A stretch of 27,386 nucleotides of DNA from a virus. Lineage: Duplodnaviria > Heunggongvirae > Uroviricota > Caudoviricetes. Each line of letters begins with the position of its first letter. The first letter of the stretch is position 1. This document shows positions 3,337-9,469 of the stretch, piece after piece. Below the pieces are notes generated by a model. It did not search any database. It was not told where the DNA came from and worked only from the letters and a program-made list of their open reading frames with translations. Location: IMG/VR virus record IMGVR_UViG_2648501669_000002, positions 1 through 27,386 of that record; one strand, given 5' to 3'. Position numbers and translations under genes: made by a program.

Positions 3337-3540
3337 ATGAACAAAAAGACCTGGTTTCGCGCATACATGTGGGCGCTGGTATGCGTCCTCGTTTCTCTCA
3401 TTCTGTATGCAGGACTACTCCCCCGAATGATTTCATCAGACAGCTCCTTCCTGGTATTGCTGGGCATTTTCATTGCCATGCTGTACCCGGCAGGCGTTGT
3501 TCGCCTTTTCAGTAGGTACATCAAGGAAATCAAACAATGA
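3337..3540 (+). CDS. Small membrane protein (67 aa, two predicted TM helices)
   Basis: Track ORF with AAAGGA SD. Two hydrophobic stretches (WALVCVLVSLILYAGLL and FLVLLGIFIAMLYPAGVV). Stop overlaps the start of the SPFH gene (ATGA at 3537-3540). Confidence 0.55.
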   Translation: MNKKTWFRAYMWALVCVLVSLILYAGLLPRMISSDSSFLVLLGIFIAMLYPAGVVRLFSRYIKEIKQ

Positions 3541-4367
3541 AGAAATTCAAACTCTTTCAGATTCTCCCGCTTTTTGCTGCCATCCTGCTGGTTGGTTGCG
3601 ATCGCGTTGAGCCAGGTAATGTGGGCATCAAAGTCAACAAACTGGGCGACGACAAAGGCGTCGGTGAAGTGGTTGGCGTTGGACGCTACTGGACAGGCTG
3701 GAATACAGAGGTTTACATCTTCCCAACCTTCAAACAAATGAAGACCTACGATGAGCCGTTCAGCTTTCAGATGAGTGACGGCACAACCATCGGCTATCAC
3801 ATCGGTGTGGCCTACAAGGTTGATCCATCCAAAGTTACTACAGTGTTTCAGACCTACCGCAAAGGCGTGGATGACATTACCGACACTGACCTGCGCCAGA
3901 AGATCGCCGACGCACTCAACCGACTGGCCAGCAAAATGACCACCGATAAATTTATCGACGGTGGCAAGTCTGAACTGCTGGATTCAGCACTTAAAGACAT
4001 TCAGGAGGAAATGACACCTATCGGCATTCAGGTAATGAGCCTCTCTTATGTCGGTAAACCGGAATACCCACCAACCGTTATCGACAGCATTAATGCCAAA
4101 GTTACGGCAAACCAGAAAACCCTGCAACGCGAACAGGAAGTCAAGCAACGTGAAGCAGAAGCCAACATGTTGCGCGCAGAAGCTGCCGGACAGGCTGATG
4201 CCATTCGCACAAAAGCCCAGGCTGAAGCCGACGCCATTCGTTTGCGTGGTGAAGCTCTGCGCCAGAACCCCGGCGTTATGGAGCTGGAAGCAATCAACAA
4301 ATGGAACGGCACGCTGCCGCAATACATGACCAGTAATACTGCTGTTCCGTTTGTTCCGGTGAAGTAA
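3537..4367 (+). CDS. SPFH/band-7 (prohibitin/HflK-like) domain lipoprotein
   Basis: Track ORF of 276 aa. N-terminal signal peptide with lipobox (LLVGC). Central region plus a Q/E/A/R-rich coiled-coil tail (QREQEVKQREAEANMLRAEAAGQADAIRTKAQAEADAIRLRGEA) is typical of SPFH proteins. Confidence 0.7.
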   Translation: MKKFKLFQILPLFAAILLVGCDRVEPGNVGIKVNKLGDDKGVGEVVGVGRYWTGWNTEVYIFPTFKQMKTYDEPFSFQMSDGTTIGYHIGVAYKVDPSKVTTVFQTYRKGVDDITDTDLRQKIADALNRLASKMTTDKFIDGGKSELLDSALKDIQEEMTPIGIQVMSLSYVGKPEYPPTVIDSINAKVTANQKTLQREQEVKQREAEANMLRAEAAGQADAIRTKAQAEADAIRLRGEALRQNPGVMELEAINKWNGTLPQYMTSNTAVPFVPVK

Positions 4368-4434: not shown

Positions 4435-4581
4435 ATGCACAAAGCCTTTGAACGATGGATGCGCCAGCGTTACGGCAATCGCTATGACCTGACAAGGGAT
4501 GTTGATGGCTACTACTGCCGCGAAATTGTGAAACGAATGTTTGAAGTGTGGTGTCACGCTCACGGCCTGTACGCCGTGTAA
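4435..4581 (+). CDS. Hypothetical small protein (48 aa)
   Basis: In-frame Met 19 of track ORF 4381..4581 with AGAGGA SD 6 nt upstream; last gene of the rightward early block before a terminator. Confidence 0.4.
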   Translation: MHKAFERWMRQRYGNRYDLTRDVDGYYCREIVKRMFEVWCHAHGLYAV

Positions 4582-4719
4582 TCCATGTCACTGTCAGAAG
4601 ATTAACCCATGTACACACAAAAAAACCGCTTGCCATGCCGTAATCAGTCAGGTTACATTTCCGCTGCACCTCATAAAACGGGTGCCGGGTTTCGCAGCCT
4701 GCTGACAACCAAAGCGCAC

Positions 4720-4740
4720 AACCGCGCCAGCGGTTTTTTT
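4720..4740 (+). terminator. Candidate rho-independent terminator
   Basis: Read directly: stem AACCGC/GCGGTT with GCCA loop, followed by a 7-T run (AACCGCGCCAGCGGTTTTTTT). Confidence 0.5.
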
Positions 4741-4752
4741 GTGCGTACTGTA

Positions 4753-4781
4753 TTGCCACGTCTTTTTCGCACACGAATTAT
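4753..4781 (+). promoter_or_regulatory. Candidate sigma70 promoter (TTGCCA-17 nt-AATTAT)
   Basis: Read directly; predicted start site falls at the 5' edge of the structured GC-rich element. Not scored computationally. Confidence 0.35.
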
Positions 4782-4788
4782 GGCGGGG

Positions 4789-4850
4789 CGTACGGGGCCG
4801 ACTTCGGTCGGGCCGGGTTCTTTGGTTGCCGGTACTGCGAACCCCGTACG
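4789..4850 (+). other. GC-rich nested stem-loop element (possible structured 5' leader, small RNA or protein-binding site)
   Basis: 9-bp inverted repeat CGTACGGGG (4789-4797) / CCCCGTACG (4842-4850) enclosing a 5-bp stem with UUCG tetraloop (4798-4811) and CCGG-containing dyads; non-coding in any convincing frame. Confidence 0.3.
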
Positions 4851-4919
4851 TCTCGCCACCCACAGTTTCGCAGCTCTGGATGGTGAGTTTTCAAAACTTA
4901 CAACCAAAGAGGCCACCCC

Positions 4920-5150
4920 ATGGCAAACCGCAAACAGCACCGCGCTATCGCGGAGCGTCGTCACATCCAGACTGAAATCAACCGCAGACTTTCCCGCGCA
5001 TTCCGCGTCGCTAAAATCATGCACATCAATATGCTGCATGAGCGTAGCTGCGAACTTTCAAACCTCTATTCATCCGCTGTTTTCAGCTATCTGGCGGATG
5101 ATCTGCGCGAGCTTCAGCAGCTCATCCAGCAGCAAAACAAACTCCATTAA
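4920..5150 (+). CDS. Hypothetical small basic protein (76 aa)
   Basis: Track ORF with AAAGAGG SD 7 nt upstream; first gene downstream of the promoter and leader candidate. Confidence 0.45.
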   Translation: MANRKQHRAIAERRHIQTEINRRLSRAFRVAKIMHINMLHERSCELSNLYSSAVFSYLADDLRELQQLIQQQNKLH

Positions 5151-5222
5151 TTCCTGTTCCGGGCCTTTCCTGCACCTTGCGGCGGGAGGCCTTCGCACAT
5201 CTGTAGTAAAGAGAATTGCAGC

Positions 5223-5612
5223 ATGATTGACGCTCATGACTTCACAAGATGGGTGCGGACACAGGACACCCGTCTGGCTCCCGTTCTTCAGGGATTATTT
5301 GATCTTTACATCCGTGGTCGTGACAACAGAGCACGCACTACAAAACCGGAGAATGCGGACACCCTTTATTTCACAGTAGACGACTGCTACCGCGTGGACT
5401 TCACACCACACGGGCTGGCGTTGCACTGCCTGACACCACACGGCGAATCACTGCTGGCGTATTACGACTCCCCGGCCTCCGTATTCGCGGCAATGCTGGC
5501 GCATCGCACTGCTGGCGGGTGTGCCTCGCTGAGTGAATACACCGCTGAATTTAACCGCCTTTCCGCCATCTTCTCGCAGGAGTGGCAGCGCGTGACGGGA
5601 TACCAGCCATGA
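5223..5612 (+). CDS. Hypothetical protein (129 aa), translationally coupled to gpA
   Basis: Track ORF with AAAGAG SD; stop overlaps the ATG of the replication gene (ATGA at 5609-5612). Confidence 0.55.
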   Translation: MIDAHDFTRWVRTQDTRLAPVLQGLFDLYIRGRDNRARTTKPENADTLYFTVDDCYRVDFTPHGLALHCLTPHGESLLAYYDSPASVFAAMLAHRTAGGCASLSEYTAEFNRLSAIFSQEWQRVTGYQP

Positions 5613-8434
5613 GCGAGTTTGCATGGAGCTGGAATGAACCACGACCAGCCATTGATCCGGCCAGATTTACGGAGCGCAGGCAGGAAACTGAAACCGACCT
5701 GCAACGCGCCATCCGTTACTACCTTGAGGCAGACAAAAGGGCACAGGAAGAACAGGAAGCGAAGGAAGAAGCCTTTTTCGCACAATCCGCCATGGGTAAA
5801 AAACTCATGGCATCCCTTGAGGAAGCCGGACAGCGTGAAAAGCTGGCACAGAGCATCATCAGTAAGCGCCGGGCAACAGAACAAGACCCAGTAGCCCGTG
5901 CCTTTGCTACACTAAAGGCACTACCTGTTTATCTGCGTGAACCACTGAGCCGCCACCTCTCTTTCCTGCGCAAAAAACAGGAAGCCGATCGCCAGAAAGG
6001 CAAAAAGAGCTGGCAGGCGGAACGCTATGCACGCGGAACCCTGCGCAAAATATTCGAACGTCTGGATCGCACTGACGGACGCTGGCTGACACCGGGTTAT
6101 CGCTCCCTTGCCGGGCGCGAACGCCTGGACGATTTGCTTTACCTGCCGCAGCTCAACAAGCACCAGATACAGACGCTGGCCACCATGATCGCGGCGATGT
6201 TCAGCAGCACCTTCGAAACACTCTGCGATGGCTTTGGTGCCAGAGATGGCGAGCTGACCATGGATGTAATGTTGAAGGCTTACCGGATGCTGGCTCGTAT
6301 CGCATTACGCCTGCACATCATGCCGCCACATTACGAAGCCCTGAACAAGAGCGAACCGGATACGGAACTGCTGCCGGGTGCAATCCTTCGCCTGACCTGT
6401 GCGGACTGGTGGAAACGCAAACTGTGGCTGTTACGTTGCGAGTGGAGAGAAGAACAACTCCGCGCCGCCTGTCTGGTTTCCAGAAAAACATCGCCTTATC
6501 TGAGCCAGGACGCGTTAAGCGAGTTTCGCGCACAGCGCGAGAAAACACGCGATTTCCTGAAAAGTTTCATGCTGGAAAACGAAGACGGGTTCACGATTGA
6601 TCTCGAGACAGTGTATTACGCGGGAGTAAGTAACCCGGTTCACCGTAAGGCAGAAATGATGGCCACCATGAAGGGGCTGGAACTTCTGGCTGAAGCCCGT
6701 GGTGACAAAGCGGTGTTTCTGACTGTCACCTGCCCGTCAAAATACCACGCAACAACGGAGAACGGTCATCCGAATCCCAAATGGAACGGGGCCACCATGC
6801 GCGACTCCAGCGATTACCTGGTTAACACGTTTTTTGCGGCGGTCCGCAAGAAACTGAACCGCGACGGCCTGCGCTGGTATGGCATCCGCACGGTGGAGCC
6901 TCACCATGACGGCACCGTGCACTGGCATATGATGGTCTTTGCCCATCCGGAAGAAATCGACACCATTGTGTCCCACACCCGCGATATTGCCATTCAGGAA
7001 GATCGTCACGAGCTGGGCGATGATATTACTCCGCGCTTTAAGGCGGAGTATGTAGACGGCTCAAAAGGCACGCCAACCAGCTACATCGCCACCTACATCG
7101 GAAAGAACCTGGACAGCCGCGCCGTGGATGGCATCGACCCGAAAACGGGCAAGCCACGCGTTGACCACGAAACAGGAAAATCAATGGCCGAGAGCGTGGA
7201 GCGCGCCATCGGCTGGGCGCGCCTTCACCGGGTCCGCCAGTTCCAGTTCTTTGGCATTCCCTCCCGTCAGGTGTGGCGTGAACTCCGCCGCCTTGCCAGC
7301 CAGATGGCACGCAACCCGGAAGGCCAGCAACGGCTGAAGGATGACGCAATGGACGCGGTTCTTGCTGCCGCTGATGCCGGATGTTTTGCCACCTACATTG
7401 AGAAACAGGGCGGCGTACTTGTTCCACGCAAAGACTACCTGATTCGCACCGCCTACGACCTCGCAGATGAGCTGAACGATTACGGTGAACAGAGCGTACA
7501 GATTTACGGGATCTGGTCGCCGCTCATCGGGGAGTCTTCCCGCGTATGTACACATCCGGATAACTGGAAGCTGGTAAGACGCAAACCGGAAGCGGGAGAC
7601 AGCGCCCGCGAAAATGGTTTTGACCTTCAGGGCGGCCCTGCCGCCCCTTGGACTCATGGCAATAACTGTCCCCGTGTACAGGAAACAGGCAACAGCGGGA
7701 CAGAACTGTCGGAAGAGCAACCAACACCGTGGCCGCAGATCCCTGACAGCGTTGATGTGGATGAATGGATGCGCTCACTGAAACGGCACGAACGCCGGGC
7801 GCTGATGCGTTCGCTGCGTGACAAACAGGCAAAAAACAGCAGTGATGAAATGCAGAGCTGGACACAGAGCCGCAAACAGCCGCGACCTTTGCCTGATAAC
7901 CACGAGTTACTCGCTAAAGAATGGCGGGAGTCTGCTGAATCTCTCGGCCTGCATATTGGTGAACAGCAGATGCAGCACCTGTTACGGGGCGGCAGTCTGT
8001 ACGTTGACGGCAGCATCATTGCACCGCAGGGATTTGAAATTGTACGCAAACCGGATACCCGCCCGGACAGCCGAATCACGCAGCTCTGGCAGCGCCTGAG
8101 CCGTAATCACGGCGTAAGCAGCACGGAGATCCGCCATAACCCGGTCGCCAGTTATCTGGAACAGCTAGGGGCATCAGACCCCGAAGCCGCCGCACGCCTG
8201 GCATCCACACTTCAGCAAGACCAGAACACCATGAAAACACCCGTTACCGTGCTTTCTGACATGCTGCGCGCCATCCGTGACGCAGAGCACGCACAGAGAA
8301 TCAGTGAAACCACTGAACGCGCCCGCCGCAAAGCAAACCTGCTGCGGGGTGGCCTGACCAGTGGAAACAAAAAACAGACAGAAACGGGATTCACAAATCC
8401 CGTAAATGAGCAAAAAACGCGCCGCGATATATGA
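5609..8434 (+). CDS. A: Rolling-circle replication initiation endonuclease, P2 gpA family
   Basis: Track ORF 5582..8434 (GTG at 5582; ATG at 5609 coupled to the upstream stop is preferred). Contains the HUH-type motif VEPHHDGTVHWHMMVFAH and a paired-tyrosine segment TSYIATYIGKN, as in the P2 gpA endonuclease domain, plus an FLTVTCPSKYH motif. At 941 aa it is longer than P2 gpA (about 760 aa, from memory). Confidence 0.85.
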   Translation: MSEFAWSWNEPRPAIDPARFTERRQETETDLQRAIRYYLEADKRAQEEQEAKEEAFFAQSAMGKKLMASLEEAGQREKLAQSIISKRRATEQDPVARAFATLKALPVYLREPLSRHLSFLRKKQEADRQKGKKSWQAERYARGTLRKIFERLDRTDGRWLTPGYRSLAGRERLDDLLYLPQLNKHQIQTLATMIAAMFSSTFETLCDGFGARDGELTMDVMLKAYRMLARIALRLHIMPPHYEALNKSEPDTELLPGAILRLTCADWWKRKLWLLRCEWREEQLRAACLVSRKTSPYLSQDALSEFRAQREKTRDFLKSFMLENEDGFTIDLETVYYAGVSNPVHRKAEMMATMKGLELLAEARGDKAVFLTVTCPSKYHATTENGHPNPKWNGATMRDSSDYLVNTFFAAVRKKLNRDGLRWYGIRTVEPHHDGTVHWHMMVFAHPEEIDTIVSHTRDIAIQEDRHELGDDITPRFKAEYVDGSKGTPTSYIATYIGKNLDSRAVDGIDPKTGKPRVDHETGKSMAESVERAIGWARLHRVRQFQFFGIPSRQVWRELRRLASQMARNPEGQQRLKDDAMDAVLAAADAGCFATYIEKQGGVLVPRKDYLIRTAYDLADELNDYGEQSVQIYGIWSPLIGESSRVCTHPDNWKLVRRKPEAGDSARENGFDLQGGPAAPWTHGNNCPRVQETGNSGTELSEEQPTPWPQIPDSVDVDEWMRSLKRHERRALMRSLRDKQAKNSSDEMQSWTQSRKQPRPLPDNHELLAKEWRESAESLGLHIGEQQMQHLLRGGSLYVDGSIIAPQGFEIVRKPDTRPDSRITQLWQRLSRNHGVSSTEIRHNPVASYLEQLGASDPEAAARLASTLQQDQNTMKTPVTVLSDMLRAIRDAEHAQRISETTERARRKANLLRGGLTSGNKKQTETGFTNPVNEQKTRRDI
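8384..8403. repeat. Palindrome ACGGGATT-CACA-AATCCCGT (copy 1, inside the 3' end of gpA)
   Basis: Read directly: perfect 8-bp arms. Confidence 0.45.
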
Positions 8435-8456
8435 AGCGCGCACAAAACAGGCGAAA

Positions 8457-8476
8457 GCGGGAGTTCAGAATCCCGT
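8457..8476. repeat. Related imperfect palindrome GCGGGAGTTCAGAATCCCGT (copy 2, upstream of parM)
   Basis: Shares the GAATCCCGTAA half with copy 1; centres about 73 bp apart; 34 nt upstream of the parM ATG. Confidence 0.4.
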
Positions 8477-8509
8477 AACCGATTAATTAATCAACATAAG
8501 GAAATCGAC

Positions 8510-9469
8510 ATGAAAATTTGTATCGACGACGGCTCCACCAACATCAAGCTGGCATGGACTGAGAACGGCGAACGCCGCAACGCCATCAGCCCGAACAGCT
8601 TCAAGTCGGAATGGTCAGCGCCGTTCGGTGGCACGCAGCCCGCGAACTACATGCTTGATGGCGTGCGCTATGGTTTTGATCCGGTCAGCGATCGCTTTGT
8701 CCAGACGACCGACACGCAATACCAGTACAGCGATGTGAATGTTATTGCCATTCATCATGCGCTGGTCAAATCAGGCATCACACCACAGGAGGTGGATGTG
8801 GTTGTCACCCTGCCACTGAGCGAGTATTTCGATACAAACGCACAGCCGGACATGGCCAACATCAGCCGCAAAAAAGCGAACGTTATGCGCCCGGTGGAGT
8901 ACCAGAACGGCGAAGCATTCACTATCCGTAACGTGCGGGTTATGCCTGAATCCATTCCGGCAGGCTTTAAAGCACTGGCTGACATGAGTCCGTTTGAATC
9001 CCTGCTGATTGTGGATTTGGGCGGAACCACGCTGGATGTGGCAAAGGTTCAGGGGCAACTGGCAGGTATCAGCCAGGTGTTTTGCGATCCACACGTAGGC
9101 GTTTCTCTGATGGCCGATGCCGTGCTGTCGGTGATGGCCACCAACGGTATGCGTACCAGTCACCACATCGCTAATACCATTATCGAACATCGCCACGATG
9201 AAGCCTGGCTGCGCCAGCACATCCACAATGACGCGCATTACGCCAGCCTGATGGCAGTTATTCGTGAAAAGGAGGAAACACTGAAACAACGCGTGATCCG
9301 CGCGCTGGCGGGTTTTTCGGGTTACGGGCGGGTGATGGTTGTCGGTGGAGGGGCGGAGATTGTGGCACCCGCCATCCGCGAAGCCTGCGGAGTTAATGCG
9401 ACTTTCATCGCGGACGGGGTGCCACAGTTTGCTCTGGTTAATGGGCTGTACGCAATGGACAAGGAGTAA
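8510..9469 (+). CDS. parM: ParM-like actin-type segregation ATPase
   Basis: Track ORF of 319 aa. N-terminus MKICIDDGSTNIKLAW closely matches plasmid R1 ParM (MLVFIDDGSTNIKLQW, from memory), with further ParM-like segments (ISPNSFK, QYSDVNVIAIHHAL, DLGGTTLD). AAGGA SD. Confidence 0.85.
   Translation: MKICIDDGSTNIKLAWTENGERRNAISPNSFKSEWSAPFGGTQPANYMLDGVRYGFDPVSDRFVQTTDTQYQYSDVNVIAIHHALVKSGITPQEVDVVVTLPLSEYFDTNAQPDMANISRKKANVMRPVEYQNGEAFTIRNVRVMPESIPAGFKALADMSPFESLLIVDLGGTTLDVAKVQGQLAGISQVFCDPHVGVSLMADAVLSVMATNGMRTSHHIANTIIEHRHDEAWLRQHIHNDAHYASLMAVIREKEETLKQRVIRALAGFSGYGRVMVVGGGAEIVAPAIREACGVNATFIADGVPQFALVNGLYAMDKE

Follow-up and report, generated by a model that had tools for sequence, protein, structure and literature searches.

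In lysogens of the satellite P4, expression of the replication genes is blocked by premature termination that depends on an antisense RNA (t1, t4, timm). In P1, P7 and P4 alike, the mature antisense RNA of about 77 nt is cut out of a longer transcript, with RNase P acting at its 5' end, and silences the gene that follows. Transcription in this family comes from a promoter upstream of isrK (seqA in P4), and base pairing by the RNAs turns off an anti-repressor and replication operon in P1 and P4. The locus is arranged in the order PLE-seqA-CI-seqC-kil/eta-epsilon-alpha, and its long Ash/Eta ORF (PF10554) opens ahead of the internal promoter and extends across the RNAs. P4 eta is truly translated on transcripts from the upstream promoter, and its translation prevents termination (PMC10111431). 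The immI locus of P1 and P7 carries, behind promoter P51b, the elements a1, b1, c4, a2, b2, icd and ant1/2, and the annotation in the P1 record reads 'repression of icd ant translation'. The precursor of C4 is a substrate of RNase P, according to the P1/P7 work of Hartmann et al. (1995) as cited in PMC4919922.

The isrK locus of Salmonella Gifsy-1 is the founding member of Rfam family RF01394. IsrK binds Hfq and exists in a short and a read-through form (PMC4825925). The read-through transcript contains a C4-like processed RNA followed by an anti-repressor gene, and this combination of read-through and downstream processing has been likened to P4 seqA and CI (PMC4825925); IsrK-C4 has also been equated with P4 seqA-CI (PMC3632133). 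At Gifsy-1 the outcome is activation in trans by IsrK, the middle of which is complementary to the downstream RNA, with translational coupling via a 45-codon ORF (PMC4825925). Here we describe how a locus in a P2-like prophage compares with these systems.

Results

Two RNA families between the flanking genes

The window, that is the whole stretch of 27,386 nt that was analysed, carries a complete P2-like E. coli prophage of the P88 type (Xuanwuvirus), with gpA, portal and tail genes. The 338 bp between the flanking genes at positions 4582-4919 had been taken, in a sequence-only reading, for a non-coding gap of 340 bp. Its size was essentially right, but it holds a probable promoter and an isrK small RNA and is crossed by an ORF of 205 codons. 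The Rfam search proposed in that reading returned two full-length matches on the plus strand: isrK (RF01394) at 4666-4740, with 65.9 bits against a gathering score of 50 (model positions 1-77 of 77, E 3e-12), and the C4 antisense RNA (RF01695, clan CL00128; CI RNA in P4) at 4776-4863, with 87.1 bits against 45 (model positions 1-87 of 87, E 3.5e-16). Since both matches lie well over their gathering scores, the module is beyond chance. Along the plus strand the order is a promoter-like site (4630-4659), isrK, C4, boxes a2 and b2, an epsilon-like gene and gpA. By analogy with the systems described above, the gap is quite probably a P4/P1-type antisense-RNA 'immunity' module (isrK plus C4) of a P88-like prophage.

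Both models also match P88, F039, mEp460 and P4, in P4 on seqA (8615-8692, minus strand) and on CI (8420-8507, minus strand). The F039 record already annotates the two ncRNAs. Both RNAs are catalogued, and the present copy is an ordinary member, not a new kind of element. The region is present in 1283 of 5426 complete E. coli genomes, with up to four modules in one genome. RefSeq/PGAP labels it a partial 'ash family protein' pseudogene adjoining a 'derepression protein'. At other loci the first gene behind C4 encodes a Rha, Bro-N, AntA/ANT, P22 antirepressor or Icd/Kil-like product.

isrK, its probable promoter and its terminator

The isrK RNA, which corresponds to the seqA region of P4, is made of hairpin 1 (4666-4685), hairpin 2 (4686-4701), a single-stranded linker and an intrinsic terminator. 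Hairpin 1 shows compensatory changes in relatives (CCUC/GGGU versus CCAG/CUGG). The terminator at 4720-4740, which had been recognised from the letters of the sequence, is real: an AACCGC/GCGGTT stem (4720-4735) with the loop GCCA precedes a U-run (4736-4740) and forms the 3' end of the full-length isrK match. It is kept in 14 of 14 aligned relatives and also in P1 and P4, and by its position it is the equivalent of P4 t1. The family RF03163 (c4-a1b1) scored below threshold at 4653-4705 (20.5 bits against a gathering score of 46.7); although boxes a1 and b1 are present, the region is not filed there because the isrK model describes it better.

Scanning and conservation point to a probable isrK promoter at 4630-4659, with a -35 hexamer TTGCCA (4630-4635), an 18-nt spacer and a -10 hexamer TACATT (4654-4659). 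The -10 ends 7 nt before isrK model position 1, with which the predicted start near 4666 coincides. The hexamers (-35 TTG; -10 TACAYT or CATACT) are found in register in P88-like and lambdoid phages and in one more distant relative. This site is the probable equivalent of P4 PLE and P1 P51b. In a promoter scan of 1.1 kb, two promoter-like sites were found, compared to 0.7 +/- 1.0 in shuffled sequences. The sigma70 promoter proposed in the sequence-only reading at 4753-4781 (TTGCCA-17-AATTAT) is weak, and the 4630-4659 site appears to be the better conserved of the two as a promoter.

The C4 RNA folds and co-varies as a cloverleaf

C4 begins after a spacer of 35 nt. Its outer stem of 17 bp (4781-4797 with 4842-4858, including two G-U pairs) encloses hairpin 1 (4798-4811), which has a UUCG loop, and hairpin 2 (4812-4833), which has a 12-nt loop. 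The minimum free energy fold of 4776-4863 (-49.8 kcal/mol, z = -3.9) is the family structure, and the opposite strand folds worse (-37.8 kcal/mol). The sequence-only reading had delimited an element of 62 nt at 4789-4850. Its 9-bp stem (4789-4797/4842-4850) and its UUCG hairpin do form; however, that stem is only the upper half of the C4 stem, hairpin 2 had been overlooked, and the real element measures 78-88 nt rather than 62. The model is flanked on its 5' side by an invariant AUUAUGG, which holds an AUG at 4780-4782. A tRNA/tmRNA search across the 27-kb window found none.

The covariance analysis that had been suggested together with folding was carried out on 38 distinct C4 loci. These were chosen by a pattern (UUCG loop, GCCGG...CCGG stem, at least 14 of 17 outer-stem pairs) that inflates the percentage of paired cells, which was 93% as compared to 79% in shuffled controls and 34-53% with partners slid. 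The choice does not inflate compensatory changes or the complementarity of the flanks. Compensatory changes were observed at 14 of the 25 C4 pairs in the 38 sequences, including the lower outer stem (columns 10/89, 13/81 and 14/80). G-U pairs, which correspond to A-C mismatches on the opposite strand, are frequent in the stem across loci.

Recognition segments and target boxes

Two segments of C4 are complementary to boxes on either side of it. The b' loop of hairpin 2, GUUCUUUGGUUG (4817-4828), can pair with box b1, CAACCAAAG (4706-4714), located in the isrK linker, and with box b2, CAACCAAAGAG (4901-4911). The a' segment CUGCGAA (4835-4841), at the junction of hairpin 2 and the outer stem, can pair with box a1, UUCGCAG (4691-4697), in the loop of isrK hairpin 2, and with the identical box a2 (4867-4873), 9 nt past the C4 stem. 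Box a2 is the equivalent of P1 a2 and of part of P4 seqC. Box b2 overlaps the Shine-Dalgarno sequence AAGAGG (4907-4912), which sits 7 nt before the ATG at 4920. The calculated duplexes with b' reach -13.9 kcal/mol for b1 and -14.2 kcal/mol for b2, values equalled by 2 and 6 of 1000 shuffles respectively; for a1 with a' the value is -16.4 kcal/mol (2 of 1000). Within the 27-kb window the b-box 9-mer occurs at 4706 and 4901 only, and its complement at 4820 only.

Structure and box complementarity co-vary locus by locus among the 38 C4 loci. The a' segment matched its cognate a2 in 36 of 38 loci (3.5% of non-cognate pairs) and its cognate a1 in 36 of 38 (6.7%), as scored on the exact core, an earlier run-length statistic having been blurred by loci that share a core. 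For the b' loop, the cognate match was found in 34 of 38 loci for b2 (1.3% of non-cognate pairs) and in 27 of 38 for b1 (4.0%).

A conserved motif, GGAUGGUGAG (4878-4887), lies between a2 and b2 and could base-pair with positions 4852-4861 of C4 (its 3' strand and tail). The alternative helix so formed, which would put a2 in a loop, is seen in the fold of the 275-nt transcript. The majority of the 38 loci have the motif, and some of the changes in it are compensatory. No stable conserved hairpin resembling P4 t4 was detected between a2 and b2 (median z -0.33; -2.2 kcal/mol in the window).

The genes behind the module

The position of the element, upstream of a gene at 4920 that leads into the replication gene, had been read correctly. 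The first gene that the module would control (4920-5150, plus strand) encodes a protein of 76 aa, which matches the derepression protein family PF25738 with 29.5 bits against a cut-off of 27 (P4 epsilon itself scores 170 bits) and phrog_3688 with an E value of 3.5e-45; existing annotation names it 'derepression protein'. BLASTP gave 29% identity to P4 epsilon over 66 aa (E 1e-8) and no similarity to P1 Icd. Judged on these matches, the 4920 gene is a homologue of P4 epsilon. It is followed on the plus strand by an ORF of 129 aa (5223-5612) and by an ORF for a gpA-type replication endonuclease (5582-8434; PF05840, E 1e-130), both presumably gated by the module. NCBIfam held no family for the 76-aa, 129-aa or 205-aa products.

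The 205-codon ORF (4609-5226, plus strand) is a putative Ash/Eta-like frame. It begins 21 nt before the -35 of the isrK promoter, spans isrK, C4 and a2/b2, and overlaps the epsilon-like gene in another frame; its stop overlaps the next start as ATGA. Residues 16-107 match PF10554 (Phage_ASH) with 31.9 bits against a cut-off of 26. Over the isrK-C4 regions of other elements, the same family scores 82 bits for P4 eta and 57 bits for the long Rha ORF of mEp460.

Comparison with described loci

The plan of P4 is found again here, with a1 in a hairpin loop, b1 in a linker, a terminator, C4, a2 and b2 over a Shine-Dalgarno sequence, a long Ash/Eta ORF whose start precedes the internal promoter, and, further downstream, genes for an epsilon homologue and for a replication protein. 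However, the carrier is a complete P2-like phage and not a satellite, and the replication protein is of the gpA type in place of the alpha primase. The first gene past b2 is the epsilon homologue, which is not nested in frame with the long ORF, whereas in P4 it is the Icd-like kil. The isrK-to-C4 spacer is 35 nt long as compared to about 107 nt in P4, and the recognition segments differ, P4 having UAUCCUGUGAAG as b' and UUCUCAC as a'.

Element order and spacing also resemble those of a1-b1-c4-a2-b2-icd in P1/P7 immI (NC_005856). P1 a2 lies 4 nt past c4, and here a2 lies 9 nt past the C4 stem and 4 nt past the Rfam match; P1 b2 lies 11 nt before icd, and from the end of b2 to the ATG the distance here is 9 nt. 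Both loci further share the C4 cloverleaf, a hairpin behind b1 that resembles a terminator and has a U-run, and a cargo of presumed anti-repressor type. Unlike in P1, the cargo is epsilon-like and not Icd-like, no C1-type operator is evident at the promoter, and the phage belongs to another family. With Gifsy-1 the locus shares the presumed read-through arrangement and the complementarity of isrK to the downstream RNA, but the frame from AUG 4780 runs for 149 codons and the downstream gene is epsilon-like, not AnrP. Finally, lambdoid and Stx phages (mEp460, ST64B, F039 and many Stx2a phages) show 66-73% blastn identity across isrK and C4. Their spacer is 11 nt shorter than here, and their cargo is Rha, Ant or peptidase-like, usually in frame with the long ORF.

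Discussion

Proposed mechanism

By analogy with P4 and P1, the module would most likely act as an RNA immunity switch that controls the epsilon-like gene and the replication genes. In the scheme that we propose, every functional step, i.e. transcription, processing, termination and repression, is proposed by homology. As in P1, P4 and Gifsy-1, transcripts from the isrK promoter would mostly stop at the isrK terminator. Those that read through would be processed, RNase P cutting near 4781 at the base of the tRNA-acceptor-like stem, and a stable C4 RNA of about 78 nt would result. Through its b' loop this RNA would pair with b2, and through its a' junction with a2, so masking the Shine-Dalgarno sequence in front of the 4920 gene. 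Left untranslated, the transcript would then be terminated, so that neither the epsilon-like protein nor the product of the 129-aa ORF nor gpA would be made from the isrK promoter. Pairing of a1 and b1 with C4 would link the two RNAs in one of two ways: C4 may strengthen the stop at the isrK terminator, an autoregulation of the P4 t1 kind, or free IsrK may sequester C4, or the C4 sequence in cis, and turn translation on as in Gifsy-1. Transcripts arriving from the upstream early operon could escape, and ribosomes may translate the 4609-5226 ORF through the module on these, like P4 eta.

Alternative explanations

The Gifsy-1 outcome suggests a switch of positive sign. Positions 4776-4863 would act in cis within a silent read-through mRNA of the isrK-orf45-anrP type, which IsrK would open in trans; a small ORF from AUG 4780 and/or the 4920 gene would thereby be activated, and the module would be an inducer and not an immunity repressor. 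Such a switch was demonstrated at the homologous Salmonella isrK locus, compensatory mutations included, and in the fold of 4666-4940 base pairs connect the middle of isrK to the 3' half of C4, in the manner of 'structure A' (PMC4825925). The AUG at 4780-4782 moreover lies in the invariant flank and is in frame with the long ORF. We nevertheless hold this to be possible rather than probable, because the whole C4 cloverleaf co-varies down to the lower stem, as for a folded excised RNA, because changes in the C4 loops go together with matching changes in the a2/b2 boxes over the Shine-Dalgarno sequence, as repression of the P1/P4 type directly predicts, and because a processed stable RNA, STnc1160, is detected downstream of IsrK (PMC4825925). 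The two models are not mutually exclusive. The sequence-only reading, in turn, proposed that a small RNA or a structured leader governs access to the replication operon. This was right in substance and wrong in detail, as regards the length of the element and its dedicated promoter, and the upstream sRNA and the target boxes had been overlooked. In its strict form, an independent sigma-70 promoter at 4753-4781 would start a 62-nt cis leader near 4788. The 9/12 consensus match, the 17-nt spacing and the formation of the 9-bp stem and UUCG hairpin speak for this. Yet the -35 is variable (TCGCCA in P88 and four other close relatives, i.e. 5 of 9 P88-like loci), lambdoid relatives lack 11 nt of the spacer with C4 itself intact, and in all lineages the '-10' AATTAT belongs to the invariant AUUAUGG that flanks C4 on its 5' side. 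Transcription starting about 7 nt past this '-10' would cost 7-8 nt of the co-varying stem; as the stem, with compensatory changes, reaches 8 bp further in the 5' direction, 4781 is the latest position at which the functional RNA can begin. Furthermore, the P1 record annotates no promoter between b1 and c4, and deletion of the isrK promoter in Gifsy-1 removes the downstream RNA (PMC4825925). An independent leader therefore seems very unlikely, and we judge the 4753-4781 match to be a chance or secondary one, not the C4 promoter.

Conservation of the region might also reflect an 'Ash family protein' encoded by the 4609-5226 ORF, the RNA structures being incidental. The PF10554 score is above cut-off, PGAP and phage records name an ash or a hypothetical protein, the frame is open through the module in 24 of 38 loci and its stop overlaps the next start; the homologous eta frame is, besides, a translated one (PMC10111431). 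However, 11 of the 38 loci have no open frame across the module and keep C4 and the boxes intact, and the variation is RNA-like, with compensatory pairs and loop-target co-variation. The distances from isrK start to C4 start (100, 101, 110, 111, 140, 185 and 82) fall into all three classes modulo 3. The C-terminal 100 residues, out of frame with the epsilon-like gene, are low-complexity-like, and BLASTP of the 205-aa ORF against P4 Eta found no similarity although both match PF10554. When the epsilon gene was resampled synonymously, the frame stayed open over it in 13-60% of trials, and PGAP itself flags the gene as a partial pseudogene. A protein-coding origin of the conservation is thus improbable; most likely, PF10554 is a protein-space shadow of the RNA module, in which ribosome transit and not the polypeptide matters. 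A site acting at the DNA level (replication origin, cos or protein binding), which the sequence-only reading had also entertained, has in its favour that GC-rich inverted repeats are found near the replication gene, together with the string GGCGGGG. P2-type origins lie within gene A. We consider such a site exceedingly improbable, given that the plus strand folds much better than the minus strand, that the pairing co-varies as plus-strand RNA with frequent G-U pairs in the stem, and that lambdoid, P1, P4 and P2-like phages, whose replication and packaging systems are unrelated, all carry the element. A P2 cos sequence, searched across the whole window with 3 mismatches allowed, had no match; this lends no support to a cos site in the gap and does not bear on where cos lies.

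Implications for P2-like prophages

The chief value of the P4/P1-type reading is one of annotation: the 'ash family protein' pseudogene label hides two regulatory RNAs. In this reading a helper-type P2-like phage has a P4/P1-style RNA immunity switch ahead of its epsilon-like and gpA genes. The module bears on prophage induction, and RNA cross-talk between helpers, satellites and lambdoid prophages is possible. A more speculative proposal, which we put forward as rather doubtful, is that isrK-C4 of P88-type phages may be an induction switch whose epsilon-like product acts as an anti-repressor against the phage's own or a co-resident P2-like C repressor, shared a and b boxes leading to cross-regulation or exclusion. 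If so, helpers, satellites and lambdoid prophages residing in one cell would cross-regulate or exclude one another according to the combinations of a and b boxes that they share. Cross-regulation among co-resident elements is conceivable because P4-type satellites carry the same two-box RNA code. Across nine P88-like loci, the b' loop came in 7 versions and the a' core in 4, combined in a shuffled way, which suggests diversifying selection on specificity.

An isrK-C4 module in the gap upstream of the epsilon-like gene

Megablast of the window retrieved PhiR44_2 (95% identity), P88 and relatives, and the window is a P2-like prophage of the P88 type (Peduoviridae, genus Xuanwuvirus). Two RNAs lie in the gap that runs from the end of the preceding ORF at 4581 to ATG 4920. 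An Rfam scan of the whole window at gathering thresholds gave full-length matches to isrK (RF01394) at 4666-4740 (+; 65.9 bits, gathering score 50) and to the C4 antisense RNA (RF01695) at 4776-4863 (+; 87.1 bits, gathering score 45). Both recurred in a more permissive scan, and a tRNA/tmRNA search of the window found none. Neither the kind of element nor its family is new, and Rfam detects it automatically, which answers the database search proposed in the sequence-only reading. The intrinsic terminator noticed there is confirmed, with its stem at 4720-4735 and a U-run that reaches 4740, and it is the 3′ terminus of isrK. The 62-nt nested stem-loop drawn at 4789-4850 was right in structure but too short, being only the upper part of C4. 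At minimum free energy, C4 4776-4863 (−49.8 kcal/mol, z = −3.9) folds into an outer stem of 17 bp (4781-4797 with 4842-4858, +) that encloses two hairpins, one with a UUCG loop (4798-4811, +) and one with a 12-nt loop (4812-4833, +). The opposite strand of this region folds markedly more poorly (−37.8 kcal/mol).

Two C4 segments are complementary to boxes on either side, all on the + strand. Segment a′ (CUGCGAA, 4835-4841) lies at the C4 junction and b′ (GUUCUUUGGUUG, 4817-4828) in the loop of hairpin 2. Upstream, box a1 (UUCGCAG, 4691-4697) occupies the loop of isrK hairpin 2, and b1 (CAACCAAAG, 4706-4714) is complementary to b′. Downstream, a2 (UUCGCAG, 4867-4873) is complementary to a′, and b2 (CAACCAAAGAG, 4901-4911) overlaps the Shine-Dalgarno AAGAGG (4907-4912) of ATG 4920. 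The predicted duplexes were −14.2 kcal/mol for b′-b2 (matched by 6/1000 shuffled targets), −10.5 for a′-a2 (50/1000), −13.9 for b′-b1 (2/1000) and −16.4 for a′-a1 (2/1000). A search of all 27 kb of the window located two copies of the b box, at 4706 and 4901, and a single copy of its complement, at 4820.

The P1 record (NC_005856) annotates, in order, promoter P51b, a1, b1, c4 RNA, a2, b2 and icd, and notes that C4 represses icd-ant translation at a2 and b2. The window carries the five elements in identical order and at nearly equal spacing. In P4 both Rfam models match (CI RNA 8420-8507(−), seqA region 8615-8692(−)), and the plan is that of the window, with b2 over the AGGAGG of kil. Two papers equate IsrK with seqA and C4 with CI RNA, and place isrK-C4-type modules in lambdoid prophages, P1, P7 and N15 (PMC3632133; PMC4825925). 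Judged by its sequence, the module of the window is the P1/P4 arrangement. One related Stx phage has both RNAs annotated in its INSDC record. Of 5426 complete E. coli genomes, 1283 contain the module (at least 80% identity), in up to four copies per genome, almost all chromosomal. Its role in P88-type P2-like phages is not documented in the literature consulted, and its position there, ahead of a P4-epsilon homologue and gpA, provides a reasonable lead.

Covariation of C4 and its targets

Comparative analysis used 38 distinct C4 sequences, from an IMG/VR pattern scan with an outer-stem filter and from annotated phages; the selection was for a UUCG loop and a GCCGG stem, together with 14 or more of the 17 outer-stem pairs. 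When 15 of these loci were re-scanned with Rfam, all reached the gathering score for C4, 6 that for isrK and 2 that for c4-a1b1. RNAalifold returned a cloverleaf with compensatory changes in 14 of 25 pairs, so that the covariance check suggested earlier supports the structure. Paired cells amounted to 93.2%, compared to 79.0% in column shuffles and 34-53% with partners slid, a percentage inflated by this pre-selection of the loci. The compensatory changes, including those in lower-stem columns 10/89, 13/81 and 14/80, are unaffected by this bias.

Each recognition core was scored in the 38 loci for an exact Watson-Crick or G-U match to its cognate or to non-cognate target regions. Cognate matches were found in 36/38 loci for a′-a2 (3.5% of non-cognate pairs), 36/38 for a′-a1 (6.7%), 34/38 for b′-b2 (1.3%) and 27/38 for b′-b1 (4.0%). 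The recognition boxes and their targets co-vary locus by locus.

Nine P88-like loci (the window, L001, L044, L054, L067, L091, L094, L104 and L111) combine nearly identical C4 stems with 7 different b′ loops and 4 different a′ cores, which are shuffled among the loci, and their flanking boxes match accordingly. The window and L094 share b′ and differ in a′; a common a′ with differing b′ is seen in the window, L091, L104 and L111. The pattern suggests that immunity specificity has diversified in a modular way. At L054, a1 (UUCUCAC, isrK hairpin 2 loop) mismatches the locus's own a′ (GUGGAAA) and a2 matches it; L054 may be a recombinant whose isrK and C4 arms differ in specificity.

A conserved GGUGGUGAG-like motif at 4878-4887, 20-30 nt 3′ of C4, resembles the 5′ strand of the C4 outer stem. 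Most of the 38 loci contain it, some of them with compensatory changes (e.g. L096, L063, L065, L020). It can pair with the C4 3′ strand (4852-4861), leaving a2 in a hairpin loop, and the unprocessed transcript may adopt this helix as an alternative fold.

Putative promoter of the module

A sigma70 promoter had been read from the sequence at 4753-4781 (TTGCCA-17-AATTAT, a 9/12 match). In an alignment of 14 relatives its −35 is variable (TCGCCA in 5/9 P88-like loci) and its spacer lacks 11 nt in the lambdoid group. Its "−10" is AUUAUGG, the invariant 5′ edge of C4 across all lineages. A start about 7 nt downstream would remove the 5′ strand of the co-varying lower stem, and P1 annotates no promoter at that place. 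By comparison, TTGCCA-18-TACATT at 4630-4659 ends 7 nt 5′ of isrK model position 1, and its hexamers stay in register in P88-like and lambdoid loci and in one more distant locus. In Gifsy-1, deletion of the isrK promoter led to loss of the downstream RNA (PMC4825925). Because of this contrast in conservation, the C4 edge, the P1 annotation and the Gifsy-1 deletion, 4753-4781 is rejected and the putative promoter of the module is therefore placed at 4630-4659.

Genes downstream of b2

The gene at 4920-5150 (+) encodes a 76-aa protein that matches Pfam PF25738 (Derepression protein family) and phrog_3688 and is 29% identical to P4 epsilon (E 1e-8), which itself scores 170 bits on PF25738. It is followed by a 129-aa ORF and a gpA-type replication protein (PF05840, E 1e-130), and the gene order is the same in the P88 record. 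In most lineages b2 is followed first by a gene of anti-repressor type, for example Rha, Bro-N, AntA/ANT, the P22 antirepressor N-domain or Icd/Kil-like, with epsilon-like in the P88 group.

At one comparison locus, L026, the first ORF after C4 (start +54, with b2 as ribosome-binding site) encodes an 85-aa product that matches the Tad2-like (Thoeris anti-defence 2) domain, PF11195 (27.7 bits, cut-off 25). The C4 module of L026 might therefore gate an anti-defence gene, not an anti-repressor.

The Ash/Eta-like reading frame

Beginning 21 nt before the −35 of the putative 4630-4659 promoter, a 205-codon ORF (4609-5226, +) traverses isrK, C4, a2/b2 and, in another frame, the whole epsilon-like gene, and its stop overlaps the start of the next ORF as ATGA. 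Its residues 16-107, which coincide exactly with the RNA module, match PF10554 (Ash protein family, Phage_ASH), and RefSeq/PGAP labels it a partial "ash family protein" pseudogene. BLASTP of its product against Eta found no similarity. Since the P4 eta ORF (8168-8812, minus strand) and the long mEp460 "Rha" ORF match PF10554 exactly over their own isrK-C4 regions, this family appears to be largely a protein-space shadow of the conserved RNA module. The frame is open in 24/38 loci, 11/38 have no open frame at all, and its openness over the epsilon gene is statistically not compelling. P4 eta is translated only on upstream-promoter transcripts, and its translation prevents termination (PMC10111431). 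By analogy, early-operon transcripts could pass through the module; if the ORF matters, it would act via ribosome transit.

Proposed mechanism

What the sequences show directly is homology, a structure with covariation, and complementarity that covers the ribosome-binding site; P1, P4 and Gifsy-1 suggest the functional steps. The isrK promoter would yield a short IsrK ending at 4740, plus some read-through, and C4 would be cut out of the read-through transcript. In P1/P7 the C4 precursor is an RNase P substrate (Hartmann et al. 1995, as cited in PMC4919922). C4 would pair with a2 and b2 and block initiation at 4920. The untranslated RNA would then be terminated, so that the epsilon-like protein and gpA would not be expressed from the isrK promoter. 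On a1/b1, C4 could increase termination at the isrK terminator in the manner of P4 t1, for which such an increase was reportedly described by Briani et al. in 2000. Alternatively, IsrK could be an anti-antisense activator, as in Gifsy-1 (PMC4825925).

Other features of the window and comparison loci

Directly after the gpA gene, 8510-9469 (+) encodes a ParM/StbA-type plasmid segregation ATPase (PF06406, PF21523), and in relatives a "plasmid partitioning/stability" gene comes next, which hints at a plasmid-like maintenance option for a P2-like prophage. In P88 and in E. coli strain 700481, the DUF4761 gene has integrase, HTH C repressor and Cox on its left; in their place the window encodes a 205-aa ECs1072-family phage protein with no Pfam match (436-1053, −), and its immunity/left-end region therefore seems to differ from that of P88. 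Two genes upstream of the RNA module, the early operon includes an SPFH/Band 7 domain protein (3537-4367, +; PF01145, E 6e-31). Unrelated Rfam matches in the comparison loci were a HEARO RNA (106 bits, L005 7332-7573 (+)) and a TwoAYGGAY RNA (58.9 bits, L099 2832-2951 (−)).
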